A DNA stretch of 64,000 nucleotides from contig CALXAV010000002.1 in NCBI GenBank assembly GCA_944386385.1, positions 65,366-129,365 on the forward strand, written 5' to 3'. The notes beneath the pieces are model-generated. The model did not search any database, had not been told where the DNA came from, and worked only from the letters and a program-made list of their open reading frames with translations. The DNA is from an uncultured Clostridia bacterium. GTDB lineage: Bacteria > Bacillota > Clostridia > TANB77 > CAG-508. The translations under genes were made by a program, and so were the position numbers. This document shows, in pieces, positions 4,366-55,169 of the stretch. Within the stretch, counting starts at the first letter, position 1. Every line of letters starts with the position of its first letter.

Positions 4366-5376
4366 ATGACTAACGTGTCAAGACGTGGTTTTTTGGCAGG
4401 TATGGGGTTGGTGACGAGTGGCTTGCTTTCTATGGCAATGCCAACTGAACAAGCTTTTGCTGCTACAACTCCAATTACTGCATGGTCTGATCATTCTCAG
4501 ACCGTTTACTCTGGACCTTCATATTCCTATGTTTCAGTAGGAAGTATTGGAAATGAAACTGTATATGTCATGGGTACAGAGCAAGGTTGGTATAAAATCA
4601 TCTACAATGTCGGAAATGGGGCAACCCAAAAATCCGGATATGTTCCGATCAGTGAGCTGAGGAACGTAAGTGGTGGAACTCCACAGGAAGATGATTTTTG
4701 GGGCGGAATTGTAATTTCTGCGACCAACCAGACAGTGTATAGTTGTGATGACTATGCAAAAAAGGTAAACATTGGCTCTGTTTCCGCTATGGAGGGCATC
4801 ACTAAGCTGTATGGCTATAATGCTTCTTCGTCGGGCGGTGGCTCGTATCCAGTTGCATTTGTTGAATACTCAACTAGTAGTGGCCCCAAGAGAGGATATA
4901 TCTTTAATCCTAACTTCATCTATGTAGGCAACACTTGTGTTGCTAGAGTGACGCAAGGAACAAATGTTTCCTACGGTTATCATTCAGGATTTAATTTCCT
5001 CAATGCGGGATCGGTAAGTGCCGGTGAATATGTTGCTGTAATTGCTACATCTGACAGCAAGAATCTGGCATATATCGAATACAATACAAATAACAAGAGG
5101 AAGCGTGGATACGTTTCTAAGAGTTGCCTGAGAATGTATCATGAGGACAACTTGCCGAATTTGTATGGTTTCGGTATTAATCCGTATGGAATCACTATGG
5201 GAGGCAATAGTGATGTTTATGCAGGCCCATCAAAGCAATACAACAAGGTTGGTAGCGTGTATGCCAACGAGGTAGTTGCTTTTGTGGCTGAAGTTCCTAT
5301 AAATGGTGTCTATTACAGGTATATTTACTATGATGTAGATGGCACCAACAGCCAGAAGGCTGGTTTCCTGGTTTAA
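4366..5376 (+). CDS. Tat-signal secreted protein with four SH3b-like repeats, GC-rich
   Basis: AAAGGA RBS before ATG 4366; twin-arginine 'SRRGFLAG', 'AFA|A' cleavage-like site; four repeats ending in basic-G-Y/F motifs (KSGYVP, KRGYIF, KRGYVS, KAGFLV); about 47% G+C in an 80-nt hand-counted stretch. Confidence 0.75.
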   Translation: MTNVSRRGFLAGMGLVTSGLLSMAMPTEQAFAATTPITAWSDHSQTVYSGPSYSYVSVGSIGNETVYVMGTEQGWYKIIYNVGNGATQKSGYVPISELRNVSGGTPQEDDFWGGIVISATNQTVYSCDDYAKKVNIGSVSAMEGITKLYGYNASSSGGGSYPVAFVEYSTSSGPKRGYIFNPNFIYVGNTCVARVTQGTNVSYGYHSGFNFLNAGSVSAGEYVAVIATSDSKNLAYIEYNTNNKRKRGYVSKSCLRMYHEDNLPNLYGFGINPYGITMGGNSDVYAGPSKQYNKVGSVYANEVVAFVAEVPINGVYYRYIYYDVDGTNSQKAGFLV

Positions 5377-45433: not shown

Positions 45434-45958
45434 ATGTGTTGTGGATGTAATAAAACAATTATAAGTATATGTATTGCTCTTATCTTGCTCTTAATAGCAA
45501 TTTTTGTAATAGTTATTGTTATAAATAATAACAATATAAAAGAACCCAATATATTGGTTGCAATAGCAAAACCGGGAGACAATACTACAGTTGGAACGAC
45601 AACTATTAAATTTAGTGAAAATAATATAGTAGAAGGAACAGCAATTTCTCATACAGAAGGTAGTGATGAAGTAATTATAAACGAAACAGGAATTTATCAA
45701 ATATCATATCAATTATTTGGAGTACAAGATGTAACAGGAACATTTAATTTCAATGCAGTGCTGTTGGTAAATAATACGCCATTAAACGATACTTTTAATC
45801 AATCACCAGTAATTAGAAATAGCACAAGCAACAGAATGACTCTAACTAGTACAGTAATATTAAGATTAAATGCAGGAGATATTTTAAAATTACAAGGAGT
45901 ATCAATTGAAGATATAACTTATCAAAATGCAAGAATCGATATTGAAAAAATAGGATAA
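45434..45958 (+). CDS. membrane-anchored BclA-C-terminal/C1q-like jelly-roll domain protein
   Basis: 'GIYQISYQL...LLVNNTPL...ILRLNAGDILKL' pattern; GGAGGG RBS before ATG 45434. Confidence 0.55.
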   Translation: MCCGCNKTIISICIALILLLIAIFVIVIVINNNNIKEPNILVAIAKPGDNTTVGTTTIKFSENNIVEGTAISHTEGSDEVIINETGIYQISYQLFGVQDVTGTFNFNAVLLVNNTPLNDTFNQSPVIRNSTSNRMTLTSTVILRLNAGDILKLQGVSIEDITYQNARIDIEKIG

Positions 45959-45991
45959 ATATAAAAAGGTAGAGAAATTTCTACCTTTATT

Positions 45992-46333
45992 TTAATTATT
46001 TATATTAAGCTTTTCTCTGTAATTATTTCCCCAAACAACCATAGAATCTAATATTGGTTTTAAACTAAGACCAGTCTCTGTTAAAGAGTATTCAACCTTT
46101 GGAGGAACTTCTGGATAAACTTTTCTTTTAACAAGTCCAGAAGCTTCCATTTCACGAAGTTTTGTAGTTAAAACTTTTTGGGTAATATTAGTTAAAGATT
46201 TTTTGAGTTCACCAAATCTTTTAGTACCTGTAAGTAAATCTCTAATAATCAAAATCTTCCATTTATCACCAATAAGTCCGACAGTTAATTCAACAGGACA
46301 AGCAGGTAATTCTTTAATTTGTTTTTTATTCAT
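45992..46333 (-). CDS. HxlR-family transcriptional regulator
   Basis: 'CPVELTVGLIGDKWKILIIRDLL.GTKRFGELKKSL..ITQKVLTTKLREME..GLV.RKVY'. Confidence 0.85.
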   Translation of the reverse strand: MNKKQIKELPACPVELTVGLIGDKWKILIIRDLLTGTKRFGELKKSLTNITQKVLTTKLREMEASGLVKRKVYPEVPPKVEYSLTETGLSLKPILDSMVVWGNNYREKLNINN

Positions 46334-46640
46334 AATAATCAACTCCGATAAAATTATAACAAAAAAGCGTGAATATGTAAAGAATGTAATGCAGTAATAT
46401 TAATAAAAGTATAAAAAACATACTTTGTACTATATACGCAATGGGGACATTTCTTATGCGTAAAAAAATTCGCAAAGGAAACGTCCCTTTTTACACCTTT
46501 TTTTCGCATTTGGGACACATCATTGAAATATTTATAAAAAAGATATAAAATAATAATATATTCTTGACTTGAAGTACACTTTAAGTGATATAAAATATAA
46601 GAGAACTTTATAAAAAATAAAAATGAATGGAGGAATTTAT

Positions 46641-47762
46641 ATGTCATATTTAGGAGAAGAAATTAAAAAACTAGGTTTTGGACTAATGAGATTACCACAA
46701 AAGGATGGGAAAATTGATGTAGAACAAACAAAAGTAATGGTAGACAAATTTATGGAAGCAGGCTTTACTTATTTTGATACAGCTTGGGCTTATGCAGGTT
46801 CAGAAGATGCAATAAGAGAAGCACTAGTTGAAAGATATCCAAGAGAGAAATTTCAGCTTGCAACAAAAAATGCAGCATGGATAAACTGTAAAACAAGAGA
46901 AGAGGCAATAGCACAATTTGAAACATCTCTAAAACAAACAGGAGCAGGATATTTCGATTTCTATTTATTACATAATTTAGGAGAAGGAAGAACAAAAGTA
47001 TTTGATGACTTTGATATGTGGAGTTGGATATTAGATATGAAAGCACAAGGAAAAATAAAACATGCAGGATTTTCATTCCACTCAACACCAGAAGAATTAG
47101 ATGAGATACTTACAAAACATCCTGAGATGGAATTTGTACAATTACAAATAAATTATGCAGATTGGGAGAACCCAGCAATAAAATCAAAAGAATGTTATGA
47201 AGTAGCAAGAAAACATGGTAAACCTGTAATTATTATGGAGCCAGTAAAAGGTGGAATGTTGTCTAATCCACCAGAAAAAGTAAAAGAAGTATTTGATAAA
47301 GCAAACCCAGAAGCGTCTTATGCGTCATGGGCAATTAAGTTTGCAGCAAATCTAGATGGAGTAATTACAGTATTATCAGGAATGAGTAATATAGAACAAA
47401 TGGAAGATAATATTTCATATATGAAAGACTTTACAAAATTATCAGATGAAGAAATAAAAACAATAAAAGAGGCACAAGATATATTAAAGACAATTCCTCT
47501 AATTCCATGTACTACTTGTAATTATTGTGCAAAAGTTTGTCCAATGAAGATAGGAATTTCAGGAACATTTACAGCAATGAATATATTAACATTATATAAA
47601 GATATGGCAGGAGCAAAACACCAAGAAAATTGGCTTGTTAGTGGACATGGCTTAAAGAGTGCAAAAGAATGTATTAAATGTGGTAAATGTGAGCAAGTTT
47701 GCCCTCAACATATAAAAATAAGAGAAGAACTTGAAAAAGCAGTTAAAGCTTTAGAATTATAA
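46641..47762 (+). CDS. aldo/keto reductase with C-terminal 4Fe-4S domain
   Basis: 'GFGLMRLP', 'YFDTAW.Y', C-terminal 'CTTCNYCAKVCP...CIKCGKCEQVCP'; divergent from hxlR. Confidence 0.8.
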   Translation: MSYLGEEIKKLGFGLMRLPQKDGKIDVEQTKVMVDKFMEAGFTYFDTAWAYAGSEDAIREALVERYPREKFQLATKNAAWINCKTREEAIAQFETSLKQTGAGYFDFYLLHNLGEGRTKVFDDFDMWSWILDMKAQGKIKHAGFSFHSTPEELDEILTKHPEMEFVQLQINYADWENPAIKSKECYEVARKHGKPVIIMEPVKGGMLSNPPEKVKEVFDKANPEASYASWAIKFAANLDGVITVLSGMSNIEQMEDNISYMKDFTKLSDEEIKTIKEAQDILKTIPLIPCTTCNYCAKVCPMKIGISGTFTAMNILTLYKDMAGAKHQENWLVSGHGLKSAKECIKCGKCEQVCPQHIKIREELEKAVKALEL

Positions 47763-48133
47763 ATGTTCAATTGGAGACACATCTATATTATAAAATAAGA
47801 ATGGCATGTAACTTTTTAGTTATGTGCCTTTTGACTACGAATAAAAAATAAAAATTAAATTAATTTACAAGTTTCGACAAACTTTTTAAAATTTATATGC
47901 TAAAATATAATTGTTTCTTGCAGGAAACAATTTATATCAATAATTTTTTTCGAGATATCCAAATTAAAAATATTACAAACAAAAATATGTATAAATTTTT
48001 ATTATATTCATAAAAAATTATATCAGTTTTTTCAATTTTATCTTAATTTAATTATCTAATAAAATTTTATCTATAAAATCCATTTTCCTATTGAAAAAAT
48101 ATAATAAAGATGTTAAAATAAAGGAGGAATAAT

Positions 48134-49006
48134 ATGCAAAATAGATTACCTTTAACATCTGATTATGTCTTTAAGAGAATTTTTGGACAGGAAGAAAATA
48201 AAGAAGCTCTTAAAGATTTCTTAGAGAGCATATTAGATGTTGAAATAAAAAATATAGAAATAAATAATCCGGAAATACCAAAAAACTATTATGATAGTAA
48301 ATTTGCGTTATTAGATTTAAGAGTAACATTAAATACTGAAGTTGTTGTAGATGTAGAAATGCAAATGCAAAACCAGCATAATATGCAGCAAAGATCACCA
48401 TTCTATATGGCAAGTAATTATGCAAATAGTATAAAAGAGGGACAGCCATATACTGAGTGTAAAAAATCAATAGGAATAAATATTTTAAATTTTAATTATT
48501 ATAAAAGGAATTCTTATCATTCTATTGCTAGGATGAAATTTGAAGAACCAAAACCAGATGAAGTAGTAGATATGGGATATAAAGAACAGGATGAGTATGC
48601 AACAAAATACTTAGAAATGCACATAATAGAACTACCAAAGTTTAAAAAGAAAAATCCAGAAATGCATACGAAAATAGCACAATGGTTATGGTTATTTGTA
48701 GGGAGTGAGGAGCAAATGGAAAAAGCGGGGAAGTTAAATAAAGAAATAAGAAAAATAAATAAAAAATTAGCTTCAATGAGCTTAAGCAACGAAGAGAGGA
48801 ATAACTATGAATTTAGATTAAAAGCAATAAGAGATGAGGCAGATGCAATAGAGTATGCAACTAGGCAAGGGATTGAACAAGGACAAGAACAAGAGAAAAA
48901 AGAAATTGTAAAAAGAATGTTAAGAAAAAATGCAAAAGTAGAAGATATAATGGAATTTACTGGATTAACAAAAGAAGAAATAGAAAAAATAAAAAATGAA
49001 GAATAA
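48134..49006 (+). CDS. Rpn-family recombination-promoting nuclease / PD-(D/E)XK putative transposase
   Basis: 'TSDYVFKRIFG...ALLDLRV......VDVEMQ' N-terminal nuclease motifs. Confidence 0.75.
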   Translation: MQNRLPLTSDYVFKRIFGQEENKEALKDFLESILDVEIKNIEINNPEIPKNYYDSKFALLDLRVTLNTEVVVDVEMQMQNQHNMQQRSPFYMASNYANSIKEGQPYTECKKSIGINILNFNYYKRNSYHSIARMKFEEPKPDEVVDMGYKEQDEYATKYLEMHIIELPKFKKKNPEMHTKIAQWLWLFVGSEEQMEKAGKLNKEIRKINKKLASMSLSNEERNNYEFRLKAIRDEADAIEYATRQGIEQGQEQEKKEIVKRMLRKNAKVEDIMEFTGLTKEEIEKIKNEE

Positions 49007-49188
49007 ACAATGTATAAAAAGTTTGTTAATGTAAAAATTAGCAAACTTTTTTAATATTAAAAAATAACTAGCTAAGATACTATAATAGTATCCAAGAGGA
49101 AACTGGGTTACAAAAAAGTGCCTACTTTACAAAAGAAAGAATCGCCTGTAAAATAATTACAGAAGTAAAATAATAGGAGTATTAGGCT

Positions 49189-49974
49189 ATGGAAAATTTA
49201 GATTTTTTAATAAATTATTTATTAGAAGAAAATAAAGAAGTGAAGGTAGAAAATATCTCAGAAGATATGATATCTAAAAAGAGATTATATAGGTCTTTAT
49301 GTAATATAAGAGATGTAAAGCCAATATCTGAGGAGTATTTAAAAATTGAAAATGAATATTTACAAAGTGAATTAAAAAATAAAGTAATAACAGAGGTAAA
49401 AGATATAGAAGCTTTAGGAAAGGAATTTCCAAAAAGTAAAATATGTTTATGGCAAGGAGATATTACAACATTAAAAATAGAAGCAATTGTAAATGCAGCA
49501 AATTCTGGAGGAGTAGGTTGCTTTATTCCTTGTCATAATTGCATAGATAACATCATTAATTCTGCAAGTGGAGTTAGCTTAAGGCTTGAGTGTGGAAAAG
49601 TCATGGAAAAGATAGGTGTATTAGAAACAGGAAAGGCTTTTATTATAAAAGGATATAATTTGCCATCAGAACATGTAATTCATACTGTTGGACCTATAAT
49701 TTATGATTTTGTAACTGAAGAAAAGGAAGAAGATTTAGCTAATTGTTATATTAATTCTTTGAAACTTGCAAAAGAAAATAATATAAGAGAGGTTGCTTTT
49801 CCTTGTATTTCAACAGGAGAATTTCATTTTCCAAAAGATTTAGCAAGTGAGATAGCAATTAGAAGTGTTAAAGAATTTTTGAGTAAAAATAAAGACTATT
49901 TTGATAAAGTTGTATTTAATGTATTTACAGACGAAGATTATGAAATTTACAAAGAAAATCTAAAGGAAGGATAG
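49189..49974 (+). CDS. macrodomain protein (protein-ADP-ribose hydrolase type)
   Basis: 'LWQGDITTLKIEAIVNAANS...GG..IDN.I..ASG...HTVGP...AFPCISTG'. Confidence 0.85.
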   Translation: MENLDFLINYLLEENKEVKVENISEDMISKKRLYRSLCNIRDVKPISEEYLKIENEYLQSELKNKVITEVKDIEALGKEFPKSKICLWQGDITTLKIEAIVNAANSGGVGCFIPCHNCIDNIINSASGVSLRLECGKVMEKIGVLETGKAFIIKGYNLPSEHVIHTVGPIIYDFVTEEKEEDLANCYINSLKLAKENNIREVAFPCISTGEFHFPKDLASEIAIRSVKEFLSKNKDYFDKVVFNVFTDEDYEIYKENLKEG

Positions 49975-49976
49975 AA

Positions 49977-50825
49977 ATGGAAGAGTATAATAAGAGAATA
50001 TCAGAAGTAAAGAATTTAATAAGTAAAGCAGACTATGTATTAATAGGTGCAGGCTCAGGTTTATCCACAGCAGCGGGGTTAGAATATTTTGGAGAAAGTT
50101 TTGAAAAGAATTTTAAAGAGTTTATAGAAAAATATAATTTTCCTGATTTATATTCAGCTTCTTTTTATGATTTTAATACTCAAGAAGAGAAGTGGGCATT
50201 TTTCGCAAAAATGATTTATTTAAATAGATTTAATAAAGAGCCTCTAAAATTATATCAAGAAATATATTCTTTAATAAAAGAAAAAGATTATTTTGTAATT
50301 ACAACTAATGTAGACGGTCAGTTTGAAAAAGCAGGATTTGAAAAAGAAAGAGTATTTGAAACACAAGGAGATTATGCTTATCTTCAATGTGAGAACGCAT
50401 GCCATAATAAATTATATTATAATTATGATTTAGTAAATGAATGGCTAAAAAATACAAAAGACTGTAAAATACCAAGTAATATAGTTCCTAAATGTCCAGT
50501 ATGTGGTGGGAATATGGAAATGAATTTGAGAAAAGATGCAAATTTTGTCCAAGATGAAAATTGGTATAAACAAGATAAAAGATATGGAGAGTTTTTAGAT
50601 AAATCACAAGATAAAAATTTATTATTACTAGAAATAGGAGTTGGATTTAATACTCCTGGAATAATAAGATTTCCATTTGAACAAATGGTATATAACAATA
50701 TAAATACACATTTAGTTAGAATTAATAAAGATTATGCTTTTGCAAGCAAAGAGATAGAAGATAAAACAATCCTATTTGATGAAGATACAAATAAGATAAT
50801 AAATGATTTAAGGAGAAAAGAATGA
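49977..50825 (+). CDS. SIR2-family protein, SirTM-like
   Basis: 'IGAGSGLSTAAG', 'ITTNVDGQF', zinc ribbon 'C..C...CPVCGG'; 'ETQGD' where canonical sirtuins have ELHG (my alignment). Confidence 0.75.
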   Translation: MEEYNKRISEVKNLISKADYVLIGAGSGLSTAAGLEYFGESFEKNFKEFIEKYNFPDLYSASFYDFNTQEEKWAFFAKMIYLNRFNKEPLKLYQEIYSLIKEKDYFVITTNVDGQFEKAGFEKERVFETQGDYAYLQCENACHNKLYYNYDLVNEWLKNTKDCKIPSNIVPKCPVCGGNMEMNLRKDANFVQDENWYKQDKRYGEFLDKSQDKNLLLLEIGVGFNTPGIIRFPFEQMVYNNINTHLVRINKDYAFASKEIEDKTILFDEDTNKIINDLRRKE

Positions 50826-51769
50826 TAATAAATACAGGTTGTAGAACAGATATACCAGCATTTTATTCAAAATGGCTAATGAACAGAATAAAAGAAGGAT
50901 ATGTAATGGTAAGAAATCCATATAATCCAAGCCAAGTAACAAAATATAGTCTAAGCCCAGATGTGGTAGACTGTTTAGCTTTTTGTACAAAAAATCCAGA
51001 ACCTATTTTGAAATATTTAGATGAATTAGATATTTATAGGCAATTTTGGTTTGTTACAATTACACCTTATGGAAAAGATATAGAGCCAAATGTACCAGAA
51101 AAGGAAAAAGTAATAGAAAGCTTTAAAAAGTTATCAAAACATGTAGGAGTAAATTCTATTTTTTGGAGATATGATCCAATCTTTATAAACGATGAATTTA
51201 CTGTATCTAAACATATAGAATGTTTTGAAAAGTTTGCTAAAGAATTAAAAGGATATACTAGAGATTGTACTATTAGTTTTTTAGATTTATATCAAAAAGT
51301 AAAAAGGAATGCACCTGATATAAAACCACCATCAAAAGAAGAACAAATAGAAATTGCAAAAACTTTTGTAAAAATAGGCAAAGAAAATGATATGGTAATT
51401 CATGGGTGCTGTGAAGGGGTATTTTTATCAGAATATGGAGTTGACTGCAAAGGTTGTATGAGTCAAGAAATTGTTGAGAAAAGTGTTAGAACAAAATTAA
51501 AACCACCAAAGAGAAAAAATATTAGAGAAGGTTGTAATTGCTTAATGGGAAATGATATTGGTGCTTATGATAGCTGTGGACATTTTTGTAAATATTGTTA
51601 TGCAAATAGTAATAAGGAATTAGTTAAGCAAAACATGAAAAGACATATAGAAACATCTCCATTTTTAATAGGAAAAGAAGAGCCTGGAGATAATATAACA
51701 GAAGCAAAACAAAAATCATGGATTATACGGAGAACAACTAAGTTTCTTATAGAGAGGAGAATAATGTGA
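50822..51769 (+). CDS. DUF1848-family protein (Cys-rich)
   Basis: '[21 protein letters not shown]' N-terminus and '[11 protein letters not shown]'; ATGA overlap with the SIR2 stop. Confidence 0.7.
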
Positions 51770-52035
51770 ATGAAAATGAATATAAATTTAATGCTATTAT
51801 AAAAAAAGTGCCAGATATAGATGGAGCATATATAGAGTTCCCATATGATGTAAGAAAAGAATTTGGAAAAGGAAGAGTAAAAGTAACAGCGACATTTGAC
51901 GGTGTAGAATATAATGGAAGTTTAGTTAAAATGGGAACACCTTGCCATATAATAGGAATAAGAAAAGATATTAGAAAGAAGATAGGAAAACAGCCAGGAG
52001 ATATGATAAAAGTTACAATTAAGGAAAGAATATAG
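51766..52035 (+). CDS. DUF1905-family small protein
   Basis: GTG start overlapping the upstream stop (GTGA), GAGAGGAG RBS; '[26 protein letters not shown]'. Confidence 0.65.
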
Positions 52036-52143
52036 ATATATATTACGAGGAAGGATAAGTAACAAAACTATAAAAAGTTATGTTGATAATTTTCTATATT
52101 TTTGATATATTGGGATTATAAATAATAAAAGAAGAGGAATAAG

Positions 52144-52618
52144 ATGAAACAAAACTTGAACAAAACAAATGTAATGAGAATATTAGACCAAAAGAAAATA
52201 AATTATAAAATTTATCATTATGAAGATGTAATAAGTGGAATAGATGTAGCAAAAACTTTAGGAGAAGATCCAAATCAAGTTTTTAAAACACTAGTTACTG
52301 TCCGGACATAGTAAAGAATATTATGTGTTTTTAGTTCCTGTAAACAAGGAATTAGATTTAAAAAAAGCAGCACATACAGTAAGAGAGAAAAGTGTTGAAA
52401 TGATAAAATCAAAAGAATTATTTCCTCTTACTGGTTATATACATGGAGGATGTTCTCCAATAGGAATGAAAAAACAATTTAAAACAGTAATTGATATAAC
52501 TGCTAAAGATTTTGAAACAATAATTTTTAGTGGCGGTAAAATAGGATACCAAGTAGAAGTAACTTTAAATGATTTACAAAAAGTTATAGATTTTATATTA
52601 GAAAATATAAAAGCTTAA
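52144..52618 (+). pseudogene. YbaK-type Cys-tRNA(Pro) deacylase, frame broken near 52303-52306
   Basis: 'NVMRILDQKKINYKIY...VFKTLVTV' then, in another frame, 'HSKEYYVFLVPVNKELDLKKAA...GGCSPIG'. Confidence 0.7.
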
Positions 52619-52745
52619 AAGACTTATAGTAAATATAAAGGACATTGTTTGTTGACATTTTTAGTCTGAAATTAGATAATAAAAATGCAGAAATAAAAAT
52701 AGAATTAAAGAAGTAAAAAATGTAATTAGAAATGGAGAAATTAAT

Positions 52746-53885
52746 ATGTTATACAAAGATTTTAAAGGTCTAAAATTATCAAATTTAGGATTAGGAACAA
52801 TGAGACTACCTAACAAAGGAGTAGATAGTGATGTACCAGTGGATGAGGAAGAAACAGCAAAAATGGTAGATTATGCTTTAAAAAATGGAATTAATTATTT
52901 TGATACAGCTTGGGGATATCATAATGGAGAATCAGAAAAAGTTATTGGAAAAGTTTTAAGTAAATATCCAAGAGATAGTTTTTATTTAGCAACCAAATTT
53001 CCTGGATATGATTTAGCAAACATGGATAAAGTAGAAGAGATATTTGAAAAGCAGTTAGAAAAATGCCAAGTAGATTATTTTGACTTTTATTTATTTCATA
53101 ATGTAAATGATAAAAATATTGAAGCATATTTAGATCCTAAATATGGAATATTTGATTATTTAATGAAACAAAAAGAAAACGGAAGAATTAAGCATTTAGG
53201 ATTTTCAATACATGGAGACTTTGATATATTAAAAAGATTTTTAAATGCTTACGGAAACTATATGGAATTTTGTCAAATACAATTAAATTATTTGGATTAT
53301 GATTTCCAAGATGCTAAAGCTAAAGTTGAGTTATTAAATGAATACAATATTCCTATTTGGGTCATGGAACCTTTAAGAGGAGGAAAACTTACAAAACTTC
53401 CAGAAGAACAAGAAAGTAAATTAAAAGCATTAAGACCAGATGAAACAACTGTTGGATGGGCATTTAGATTTTTACAAAGTATACCAGGTGTAACAATGGT
53501 TCTTTCTGGAATGTCATCAATGGAACAATTACAAGAAAATATTAAGATATTTAGTGAAGATAAAACTCTTAATGAAGAAGAAATGAATACTTTATTAGAA
53601 ATAGCAAAAGGAATGCTTAAAGGAAATGTTTTACCTTGTACAGCTTGTAGATATTGTACCTCACATTGCCCAATGGGACTTGATATTCCAAAGCTACTTG
53701 CTTTATATAATGAACATTGTTTTACAGGTGGAGGATTTATTGCACCAATGGCCATTAGTTCACTTCCAGATGATAAAAAACCAAGTGCTTGCATAGCTTG
53801 CAAGAGTTGCGAGGCAGTTTGTCCTCAAGAAATAAAAATATCAGAAGCAATGGCAGATTTTGCTAAGAAATTAGAACAAGGGTAG
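52746..53885 (+). CDS. aldo/keto reductase with C-terminal 4Fe-4S domain (paralog of 46641-47762)
   Basis: Same architecture; 'CTACRYCTSHCP...CIACKSCEAVCP'. Confidence 0.8.
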   Translation: MLYKDFKGLKLSNLGLGTMRLPNKGVDSDVPVDEEETAKMVDYALKNGINYFDTAWGYHNGESEKVIGKVLSKYPRDSFYLATKFPGYDLANMDKVEEIFEKQLEKCQVDYFDFYLFHNVNDKNIEAYLDPKYGIFDYLMKQKENGRIKHLGFSIHGDFDILKRFLNAYGNYMEFCQIQLNYLDYDFQDAKAKVELLNEYNIPIWVMEPLRGGKLTKLPEEQESKLKALRPDETTVGWAFRFLQSIPGVTMVLSGMSSMEQLQENIKIFSEDKTLNEEEMNTLLEIAKGMLKGNVLPCTACRYCTSHCPMGLDIPKLLALYNEHCFTGGGFIAPMAISSLPDDKKPSACIACKSCEAVCPQEIKISEAMADFAKKLEQG

Positions 53886-54113: not shown

Positions 54114-55169
54114 TTAAGAGTTCTTGAATCTCTTTCTTTGTTCCATTTGTGCTTTTGCTATTTTTATGCTATCAAGTAATTTTTGTTCTAATATTTTTGT
54201 AGGAACATATTTGGTTAAATATTCAGCAACATGAATATTACTATTATCTAAACCAAGTAATTCAGTCATCATTTTACTTTTACTTGCACATAATATTATT
54301 GCAACAGGAGATTGTTCTCCTTCTGCTTTTTCATATTTATCAAGATATTTTAAATAAAGCTCCACTTGTCCTTTGTATTCAGGTCTAAACTTATCTAATT
54401 TAAGCTCGATAACAACGAGTCTTTTCATTTTTCTGTGATAGAAGAGTAAATCTATATAATAATCTTCTCCATCTATTGTTATTCTTTTTTGTCTTCCCAT
54501 ATATGCAAAATCATTTCCCATTTCTAAAATAAATTTTTCTAGTTCGCTTAAAATAGCGTTTTCTAGGTCTTTTTCACTATATGTATCTTTTAAATTAAGA
54601 AAATCTAAAACATAGGGGTCTCTAAAGAATAAATCAGGAGTCATTTTATTTTCTTCTCTTAATAATTGTAATTCATTTTTTATTGTTTCTTCTGGCTTTT
54701 TAGATATTGCAGTTCTTTCAAATAAGGCAGAGCCAATTCTTTCTCTTAAAGTTTTCACAGACCAATGTTCATTTAAACACATTGTAATATAAAATTCTTG
54801 CTTTACATTATCTTTAACTTGTAATAGTTCAACAAAATGAGACCAGCTCAATTGTTGCGACAGTGTCGCAACAATTCCAAAATCTGAAAAACAACTATAA
54901 AATTTTATCATCTTAAATAAATTTCTTTCACTATATCCTTTACCATAATTTATTATAAGTCTTTTGCTTAACTCTTTTATTATAGACTTTCCATATTCTG
55001 CTTTCTCATTTTTTAGTACATTTTCTGTTATGTCTTTTCCTATCTTCCAATATAATAATGTCATTTCTCTGTTTACATTTGTTACTACATTTCTTTTAGC
55101 GTCTTCTATAAGATAAACTATTCTGTTGTATAAATTATTTATATTATTATTTTTTTCTAGTTCGTTCAT
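54114..55169 (-). CDS. DUF1016 / YhcG-family PD-(D/E)XK nuclease
   Basis: 'LSQQLSWSHFVELL', 'DPYVLDFL', 'IDLLFYH...LVVIELK' motifs. Confidence 0.85.
   Translation of the reverse strand: MNELEKNNNINNLYNRIVYLIEDAKRNVVTNVNREMTLLYWKIGKDITENVLKNEKAEYGKSIIKELSKRLIINYGKGYSERNLFKMIKFYSCFSDFGIVATLSQQLSWSHFVELLQVKDNVKQEFYITMCLNEHWSVKTLRERIGSALFERTAISKKPEETIKNELQLLREENKMTPDLFFRDPYVLDFLNLKDTYSEKDLENAILSELEKFILEMGNDFAYMGRQKRITIDGEDYYIDLLFYHRKMKRLVVIELKLDKFRPEYKGQVELYLKYLDKYEKAEGEQSPVAIILCASKSKMMTELLGLDNSNIHVAEYLTKYVPTKILEQKLLDSIKIAKAQMEQRKRFKNS
54850..54876. repeat. palindrome R4, inside the DUF1016 CDS
   Basis: AATTGTTGCGAC-agt-GTCGCAACAATT, 12-bp perfect arms; encodes IVATLSQQL. Confidence 0.9.

Follow-up and report, generated by a model that had tools for sequence, protein, structure and literature searches.

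The 64,000-nt stretch of DNA analysed here, called the window throughout, is part of contig CALXAV010000002.1 from an uncultured Clostridia bacterium of the chicken gut, the genome assembly of which comprises 1.98 Mb in 61 contigs and is 92% complete. At 49189-52035 it carries four plus strand genes encoding a zinc macrodomain protein (Zn-Macro), a class M sirtuin (SirTM), a DUF1848 protein and a DUF1905 protein. All four open reading frames (49189-49974, 49977-50825, 50822-51769 and 51766-52035) were confirmed, and a profile search returned the same four domains (Macro, SIR2, DUF1848, DUF1905) that had been assigned in the first-pass annotation, which was made by a model from the letters alone. 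The tight packing described there was reproduced as well, with a 2-nt gap between Macro and SirTM, an ATGA overlap between SirTM and DUF1848 and a GTGA overlap between DUF1848 and DUF1905. A good Shine-Dalgarno sequence (a GGAG-type ribosome-binding site) precedes each of the four reading frames, and stop/start overlaps are also present in the loci of relatives. In our proposed reading the four genes probably form an intact, co-translated operon around a lone SirTM/Zn-Macro pair.

The stretch from 48967 to 52700 is matched without differences by one 7.6-kb contig of a chicken-gut metagenome run (X1), is covered in several collinear pieces in run X3, a second sample, and was recovered by word search in three samples. 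Since independent metagenome contigs give the identical sequence, the locus is not an assembly artefact. Horizontal transfer was considered on the basis of composition and rejected, the GC content of the operon (27.2%) being close to that of the genome (27.7%). A simple terminator scan found no terminator after DUF1905; in the operon region such scans, for promoters and terminators alike, perform at chance level.

The first gene (49189-49974, plus strand) encodes the Zn-Macro, predicted to be a protein-ADP-ribose hydrolase and thus the eraser of the pair. The protein matches PF01661 with 118 bits and the NCBIfam equivalog NF003163 (protein-ADP-ribose hydrolase) with 316.1 bits at a cut-off of 272, and it aligns to the solved zinc macrodomains 8rsi (250 bits), 5kiv and 8rsl. 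The NAAN motif is found at residues 102-105, followed at residues 111-118 by the loop CFIPCHNC, in which C111, H116 and C118 make up the Cx4HxC zinc-loop motif defined for Zn-Macros (PMC11490716). The alignment to 8rsi begins at residue 2, showing that the N-terminal bundle of three alpha helices is present; loss of this bundle abolishes zinc binding (PMC11490716).

SirTM, the predicted ADP-ribosyltransferase and writer (49977-50825, plus strand), starts 2 nt downstream of the NF003163 macrodomain gene and is in this way genetically linked to a Zn-Macro. It matches the SIR2 profile PF02146 with 34.8 bits, and scores 187 bits against SpySirTM (PDB 5a3a), 107 bits against the fungal Mfs1 (8rsn) and about 29 bits against SIRT2. 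The HMMER alignment to 5a3a places N111, Q130 and R185 on Spy N118, Q137 and R192, and FETQGD on FHIQGE of the S. pyogenes SirTM, so that Q130-G131 stand in place of the catalytic HG; the Zn-Cys4 site is complete (C138x3C142...C173x2C176). The first-pass annotation had seen ETQGD where canonical sirtuins carry ELHG, and Gln indeed replaces His on proper alignment. This feature is, however, no oddity of the gene studied here: QG replacing the catalytic HG is among the published hallmark residues of class M (Rack et al. 2015, PMC4518038). The Macro-then-SIR2 order had been likened to that of SirTM operons, and the matches to 5a3a and NF003163 bear this out. The first two genes are a genuine Zn-Macro/SirTM pair, with enzyme activities predicted from sequence.

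The SirTM gene has also diverged faster than the genes around it. Compared with that of the syntenic relative L002 (6001-6846), it is 75% identical, while the two loci are otherwise 90-98% identical. In this comparison SirTM had a dN/dS of 0.33; the values for Macro, DUF1848 and the aldo-keto reductase AKR1 were 0.15, 0.13 and 0.03. The differences sit mainly in residues 30-180, the last 100 residues being 90-100% identical. Such a pattern could result from a relaxation of constraint, from adaptation or from recombination affecting the substrate-side half.

Lipoate ligase (PF21948) had no match in the whole assembly, whereas 13 of the 14 control genomes were matched. GcvH (PF01597) is likewise absent from the window and from the whole assembly; the sole and marginal GCV_H match in the genome is the biotin carrier AccB, with an EAMKLM motif, located between fabF and fabZ. 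The pair is therefore called lone, since neither protein is encoded in a genome that is 92% complete. That GcvH-L and LplA2 are missing had been noted for the window and thus holds for the entire assembly, but to describe the operon as being without its usual partners was an overstatement. Lone SirTM/Zn-Macro operons have already been described in Clostridia (Clostridiaceae, Lachnospiraceae), Enterococcus, Treponema and Methanobrevibacter (PMC4518038, PMC11490716). The Zn-Macro of lone pairs cannot demodify GcvH-L (PMC11490716), and the targets of these pairs are unknown according to Ariza et al. 2024 (PMC11490716). The pair itself is thus of a known kind. What is unpublished, and recurrent, is its partnership with DUF1848: the association is absent from both PMC4518038 and PMC11490716, and a full-text literature search for 'DUF1848' returned unrelated papers only.

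DUF1848 (50822-51769, plus strand), a basic protein with a pI of 8.8 and a predicted barrel fold, is the candidate partner or target of the pair. It matches PF08902 with 338.6 bits over profile positions 1-262 of 262. An alignment of 48 sequences contains seven invariant cysteines (C196, C212, C238, C240, C252, C256 and C259), all of which the window protein carries. The last three form an exact CX3CX2C motif (252-259) followed by YA; the Cys-rich motif pointed out in the first-pass annotation was located here, at residues 252-262. The AlphaFold (AF2) model of the barrel is confident (pLDDT 93.4, pTM 0.90), and its only Foldseek neighbours with a probability of 1.0 are radical-SAM enzymes, with spore photoproduct lyase (SPL) first at a TM-score of about 0.35. 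The matches to this fold (SPL, TigE, viperin, MqnE) all reach this probability, but with TM-scores of at most 0.36 and identities of 15-17%. The sequence had no match in the PDB, where it has no close solved relative, and among Pfam profiles it did not match the radical-SAM family PF04055. Taken together, these features point to a radical-SAM-like Fe-S enzyme that may act on nucleic acid and has its cluster motif shifted to the C-terminus. An SOS role was also considered and rejected, as a LexA/Cheo box (GAAC-N4-GTTC) is not found in the window and occurs at only 1 of 36 stand-alone DUF1848 loci.

The linkage of DUF1848 to the pair was surveyed in 401 genomes drawn evenly from the phylum, in 251 genomes of the class and in 121 genomes of the host family, as well as in 55 species-representative loci from a SirTM protein search, most of them from metagenome-assembled genomes (MAGs) of uncultured gut Clostridia (chicken, rabbit, human). 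Nearly all of the approximately 30 loci with a SirTM of at least 63% identity have DUF1848, or a remnant of it, directly downstream; in L023 and L027 DUF1848 is nearly or wholly lost. The order is different in the Ruminococcus MAG L059 (DUF1848-Macro-SirTM), and in genome G577 DUF1848-Macro adjoins a quinone-oxidoreductase-like gene. In the host family SirTM is present in 10 genomes, DUF1848 in 17 and both in seven, and in all seven the two genes are adjacent (Fisher p = 2.9e-5 for co-occurrence, ignoring phylogeny). The four other sampled species of the host genus have neither gene.

A scan of metagenome contigs centred on DUF1848 found an adjacent Zn-Macro and/or SirTM at 19 of 80 loci, in at least four gene orders: Macro-SirTM-DUF1848, SirTM-DUF1848, DUF1848-Macro(-SirTM), DUF1848-SirTM and Macro-DUF1848. 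A tree of 130 DUF1848 proteins has two well-supported clades. None of the 28 members of clade I is linked to the pair, and clade II comprises 40 linked, 36 stand-alone and 26 undetermined proteins. The distribution in clade II requires at least 11 changes of state, nine of which are forced by well-supported branches. The stand-alone genes, taken from 36 diverse genomes, have no conserved neighbour of any kind: of 187 families observed around them, none occurred in more than three of 142 neighbours. The link to DUF1848 is thus real, specific to lineage and subfamily, and not accidental, and because repeated reshuffling keeps DUF1848 and the genes of the pair together, function is a better explanation than accident. 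It is neither universal nor obligatory, as DUF1848 is missing from the majority of SirTM pairs and is itself mostly a stand-alone gene. In L002 (6983-8005) and in L018 (between 4355 and 5535) a prophage-type RhuM/Bro-N gene was found inserted between SirTM and DUF1848; this junction can therefore be broken without loss of either gene.

The intergenic leader upstream of Macro is 182 nt long (49007-49188) and not about 150 nt (49040-49188), as first annotated. In close relatives conservation extends over approximately 105 nt ahead of the Macro start codon, whatever lies upstream. A scan of 45900-52800 against Rfam gave no match at E <=1, and the conserved leader is therefore not a known riboswitch. 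It contains a conserved 21-nt box, ACAAAAAAGTGCCTACTTTAC (49110-49130, plus strand), with the core dyad AAAGTG-CC-TACTTT, which we regard as a putative HxlR operator. With up to two mismatches allowed, the box occurs only once in the 1.98-Mb genome. Allowing four mismatches, it was found at 33 of 61 SirTM loci, including those of Lachnospiraceae, and always on the operon strand; control loci gave a single match in 346 kb at the same setting. In relatives the box lies in the spacer adjoining a divergent hxlR gene. A promoter-like site, TTTACA-17-TAAAAT (49126-49154, plus strand; 10 of 12 positions matching), has its -35 element overlapping the box, although such sites occur at chance density in AT-rich DNA. 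Most likely, judging from the sequence, the operon is driven by a promoter overlapped by this hxlR-associated box.

Two perfect dyads in the leader had been highlighted in the first-pass annotation. Both exist, but neither is conserved as a dyad. Dyad 1, an 8+1+8 palindrome (GATACTAT-A-ATAGTATC, 49076-49092), has its left arm only in the window and L018, its right arm being the edge of the conserved leader; dyad 2 (CTGTAA-AATAA-TTACAG, 49146-49162), within which the -10 element of the promoter-like site is located, shows one-sided, uncompensated changes in L018 and L021. They were therefore rejected as conserved hairpins or operators. An imperfect dyad, GTATC-N6-GAAAC (49088-49103, plus strand), was compared by eye with the hxlR intergenic regions of L005, L035, L049 and others, and would be the counterpart of a perfect dyad, GTTAC-N6-GTAAC, in hxlR-linked loci that are more distant.

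The operon is likely to be regulated by an HxlR (MarR/DUF24)-type protein with an N-terminal LPACPV cysteine, encoded at 45992-46342 on the minus strand and 95% identical to the HxlR (PF01638) of L002; its binding to the box is predicted. In most related loci hxlR is located upstream of the SirTM operon, usually in divergent orientation, the prevailing arrangement being hxlR(-), box, a gene for a 264-aa protein, Macro, SirTM and DUF1848. A duplicated operator, present in both the hxlR-AKR1 spacer and the Macro leader, was considered and rejected, as only low-complexity k-mers are common to the two. HxlR-type redox control fits the role in oxidative stress reported for SirTM operons (PMC4518038, PMC11490716).

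Taking these data together, we consider it rather probable that the lone Zn-Macro/SirTM pair is functionally coupled to clade II DUF1848 in this lineage. That DUF1848 is the actual ADP-ribosylation target of SirTM is a more tentative proposal. Several results weigh against the coupling. In the phylum sample Zn-Macro is present in 21 genomes and DUF1848 in 122, but they are adjacent only in the genome of the window (G000), and DUF1848 is not enriched among Zn-Macro genomes (7 of 21, with a background of 122 of 401). At the scale of the class co-occurrence is not enriched either, and adjacency was found in two of 26 Zn-Macro genomes, that of the window and G577. In the host family three genomes have SirTM without DUF1848 and ten DUF1848 without SirTM. 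In addition, many loci of the clade are decaying: 12 of them have lost the N-terminus of Macro with its bundle, several have a truncated SirTM, and in L016 only a remnant of SirTM precedes DUF1848-DUF1905. DUF1848 is usually intact in such loci and therefore works without the pair. Linkage in the main clade may largely reflect vertical inheritance. The hxlR gene of the window is intact but lies 2.7 kb from the box, with AKR1 and an inserted Rpn gene intervening, and the hxlR-AKR1 intergenic region has no box. Metatranscriptome data yielded a single 207-nt contig over DUF1848, from one run only, and no evidence for an operon transcript. The resemblance between DUF1848 and the radical-SAM enzymes is weak, too, with TM-scores of at most 0.36.

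In a rival explanation the genes are neighbours only, the pair having landed upstream of a housekeeping DUF1848 gene in an ancestor of the clade. They would then be co-transcribed, perhaps as part of one HxlR stress regulon, while SirTM modifies an unlinked target and DUF1848 does an independent job, for example in repair or modification of nucleic acid. DUF1848 normally stands alone, is highly conserved and is present in about 30% of the sampled phylum genomes, it is not enriched in Zn-Macro genomes at the scale of phylum or class, it outlasts the decay of Macro and SirTM, and redox genes (an aldo-keto reductase with a Fer4 domain, a flavin reductase, nicotinate phosphoribosyltransferase and a metallo-beta-lactamase (MBL)-fold protein) cluster here too. 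Arguments against mere neighbourhood are an adjacency that occurs in at least four gene orders and has been gained or lost independently at least nine times on the DUF1848 tree, the adjacency of DUF1848 and SirTM in the host family whenever both are present, and the overlapping reading frames. We regard this explanation as possible but distinctly less probable than a functional coupling.

The fourth gene encodes a small basic beta-barrel protein of the DUF1905 family (51766-52035, plus strand; PF08922 with 87.7 bits, pI 9.5), which matches PDB 2d9r with 114.5 bits over residues 4-85. Among all loci compared, the window, L016 and L017 are the only ones with DUF1905 behind DUF1848, while L018 retains a remnant, and it was not seen among the neighbours of the 36 stand-alone DUF1848 genes. 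Of the two juxtapositions proposed to be meaningful at the outset, that of DUF1848 with the pair is recurrent and occurs in several orders, but DUF1905 was added recently, at species level, and does not accompany the pair in general; it possibly serves as nucleic-acid or protein adaptor. SirTM requires prior lipoylation of its target (PMC4518038), and by analogy with the extended SirTM operon DUF1848 might take the place of LplA2 and modify DUF1905 as a carrier in place of GcvH-L, after which SirTM would ADP-ribosylate DUF1905. The layout of four genes with a small terminal protein and the DUF1848-DUF1905 overlap, kept in L016 and L017, are in line with such a scheme. We nevertheless consider it quite unlikely, as DUF1905 is missing from almost all DUF1848-linked loci and from the stand-alone ones, is reduced to a remnant in L018 and is basic, unlike the acidic GcvH-L.

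Directly upstream of the leader lies a gene for an Rpn-family PD-(D/E)XK nuclease or putative transposase (48134-49006, plus strand; TIGR01784 with 180 bits, PF12784 (PDDEXK_2) with 167 bits). The first-pass annotation had its family and position right, but the gene is an insertion and not a member of the module, because it is missing at this position from L002, L019 and L020, syntenic loci in which the same leader comes right after AKR1, and is multicopy in the genome (three closer extra copies and distant ones; the assembly graph is fragmented at the locus). Downstream, at 54114-55169 on the minus strand, a YhcG/DUF1016 PD-(D/E)XK nuclease is encoded, which matches PDC-S02, a family listed by PADLOC as a defence candidate, with 412 bits and has two distant copies elsewhere in the genome.

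The two nucleases, one upstream and one 2 kb downstream, could suggest that the genes serve anti-phage defence or NAD depletion, with a SIR2-type effector; a stress or defence module had been among the original suggestions. The RhuM/Bro-N insertions in relatives, the patchy distribution across the host family and a match (135 bits) of DUF1848 to a PADLOC model derived from proteins that are accessory to UG25 reverse transcriptases (DRT) could be read in the same way. However, no reverse transcriptase is located here, Macro did not match any PADLOC model, and SirTM matched only AbiI at E = 0.0011, so that the suggestion finds no support for the core pair. SirTM belongs to a characterised, specific class of protein ADP-ribosyltransferases paired with an eraser (PMC4518038), and across species the locus keeps its synteny with genes of metabolism and redox functions, at a GC content equal to that of the genome. 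A role in defence thus appears very improbable.

The operon is flanked by paralogous aldo-keto reductase genes (46623-47762, AKR1, and 52746-53885), the products of which share 34% identity and end in 2x[4Fe-4S] ferredoxin domains. With these genes and hxlR, the region has a predicted redox-stress character. An element containing GGGAC...GTCCC / GGGACACATC is located upstream of AKR1 in the window (46440-46520), whereas in L002 (about 4990-5060), L019 and L020 it is located downstream of that gene; AKR1 may thus be flanked by a small element that is repeated or mobile. Between the operon and the second reductase a gene with a YbaK/aminoacyl-tRNA-editing domain is split into two open reading frames of 55 and 97 aa (52144-52311 and 52325-52618) that lie in different frames; a frameshift has probably made it a pseudogene, and the same sequence is present in independent metagenome contigs.

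A protein of 262-264 aa is encoded between hxlR and Macro in L005 (4360-5154), L002 (2834-3622), L011 (2518-3312) and some 20 further loci. Its sequence matches nothing in Pfam or the PDB, and the gene is absent from the genome of the window. Its structural model has a metallo-beta-lactamase fold (pLDDT 83.7; TM-score of 0.70 to 8d2z), which makes it a second candidate partner of the SirTM pair. In L011-L015 a gene for nicotinate phosphoribosyltransferase (NAD salvage; 365-1795) lies immediately next to hxlR and the SirTM cluster, and Macro is split into two reading frames, a state reproduced in five assemblies.

If the pair is coupled to DUF1848, the following sequence of events can be envisaged. 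Upon redox or electrophile stress HxlR would release or activate the operon promoter, and SirTM would use NAD+ to mono-ADP-ribosylate its target, for which DUF1848 or a protein acting with it is the best candidate. The modification might switch an oxygen-sensitive DUF1848 Fe-S enzyme off or on, and Zn-Macro would take off the mark when conditions recover. In a variant, reversible ADP-ribosylation of DUF1848 would shut down, or protect, its radical chemistry during redox stress. The most specific form, in which lone pairs under an HxlR thiol switch would have clade II DUF1848, as a radical-SAM-type Fe-S enzyme in circularly permuted form, for their physiological substrate, is put forward with due reserve. 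The SirTM/Zn-Macro pair is studied as a stress-response system and drug target, and GcvH-L is its only known substrate. The recurrent, subfamily-specific linkage thus provides a concrete substrate or partner candidate for lone pairs and, at the same time, a first functional handle on DUF1848, while the hxlR-associated box adds a regulatory input to the lone system.

Compared with published lone SirTM/Zn-Macro operons, the window operon has the same adjacent, co-directional genes, a sirtuin with QG for HG and the conserved Asn and Arg, and a macrodomain with the Cx4HxC loop and three-alpha bundle, and it likewise lacks GcvH-L and LplA2. The difference lies in the translational coupling of the window pair to DUF1848 (and DUF1905), which offers a candidate target, whereas none has been proposed for the published pairs. 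The extended operon found in S. aureus and S. pyogenes consists of gcvH-L, macro, sirTM and lplA2, plus OYE and LLM. The writer and eraser chemistry is expected to be the same, and both operons combine an accessory enzyme and a small protein with redox genes and a connection to oxidative stress. The window genome, however, encodes no lipoyl carrier or lipoate ligase anywhere, and the partner is a Cys-rich protein with a predicted Fe-S-type barrel instead of a lipoylation system.

Regulators of the HxlR/DUF24 type, HypR for example, sense the redox state through thiols. As with the MarR/DUF24 regulators HypR and YodB of Bacillus subtilis, a small divergent regulator with an N-terminal cysteine is found together with a conserved, dyad-containing box that overlaps the promoter of redox genes and adjoins the regulator gene. 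In the window AKR1 and the Rpn insertion have moved the regulator gene 2.7 kb away from the box, and binding is predicted. With spore photoproduct lyase and other radical-SAM barrels (4fhc, 4rh0; TigE, viperin, MqnE) DUF1848 shares a partial barrel and the exact motif CX3CX2C with an aromatic residue behind it, but its cluster motif is C-terminal where theirs is N-terminal, and it has four additional invariant cysteines. It has no general LexA box and no repair neighbourhood.

The closest conceptual parallel is the DraT/DraG system, in which reversible mono-ADP-ribosylation switches the nitrogenase Fe protein according to the state of the cell. In both cases an oxygen-sensitive Fe-S enzyme would be subject to reversible mono-ADP-ribosylation, the target being hypothetical in the window. 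The enzymes belong to unrelated families, an ART-fold DraT and ARH-fold DraG in one system and a sirtuin and macrodomain in the other. If our proposal is correct, the operon would do with a sirtuin what DraT/DraG does for nitrogenase, and a radical-SAM-like enzyme would for the first time be found under the control of an ADP-ribosylation switch.

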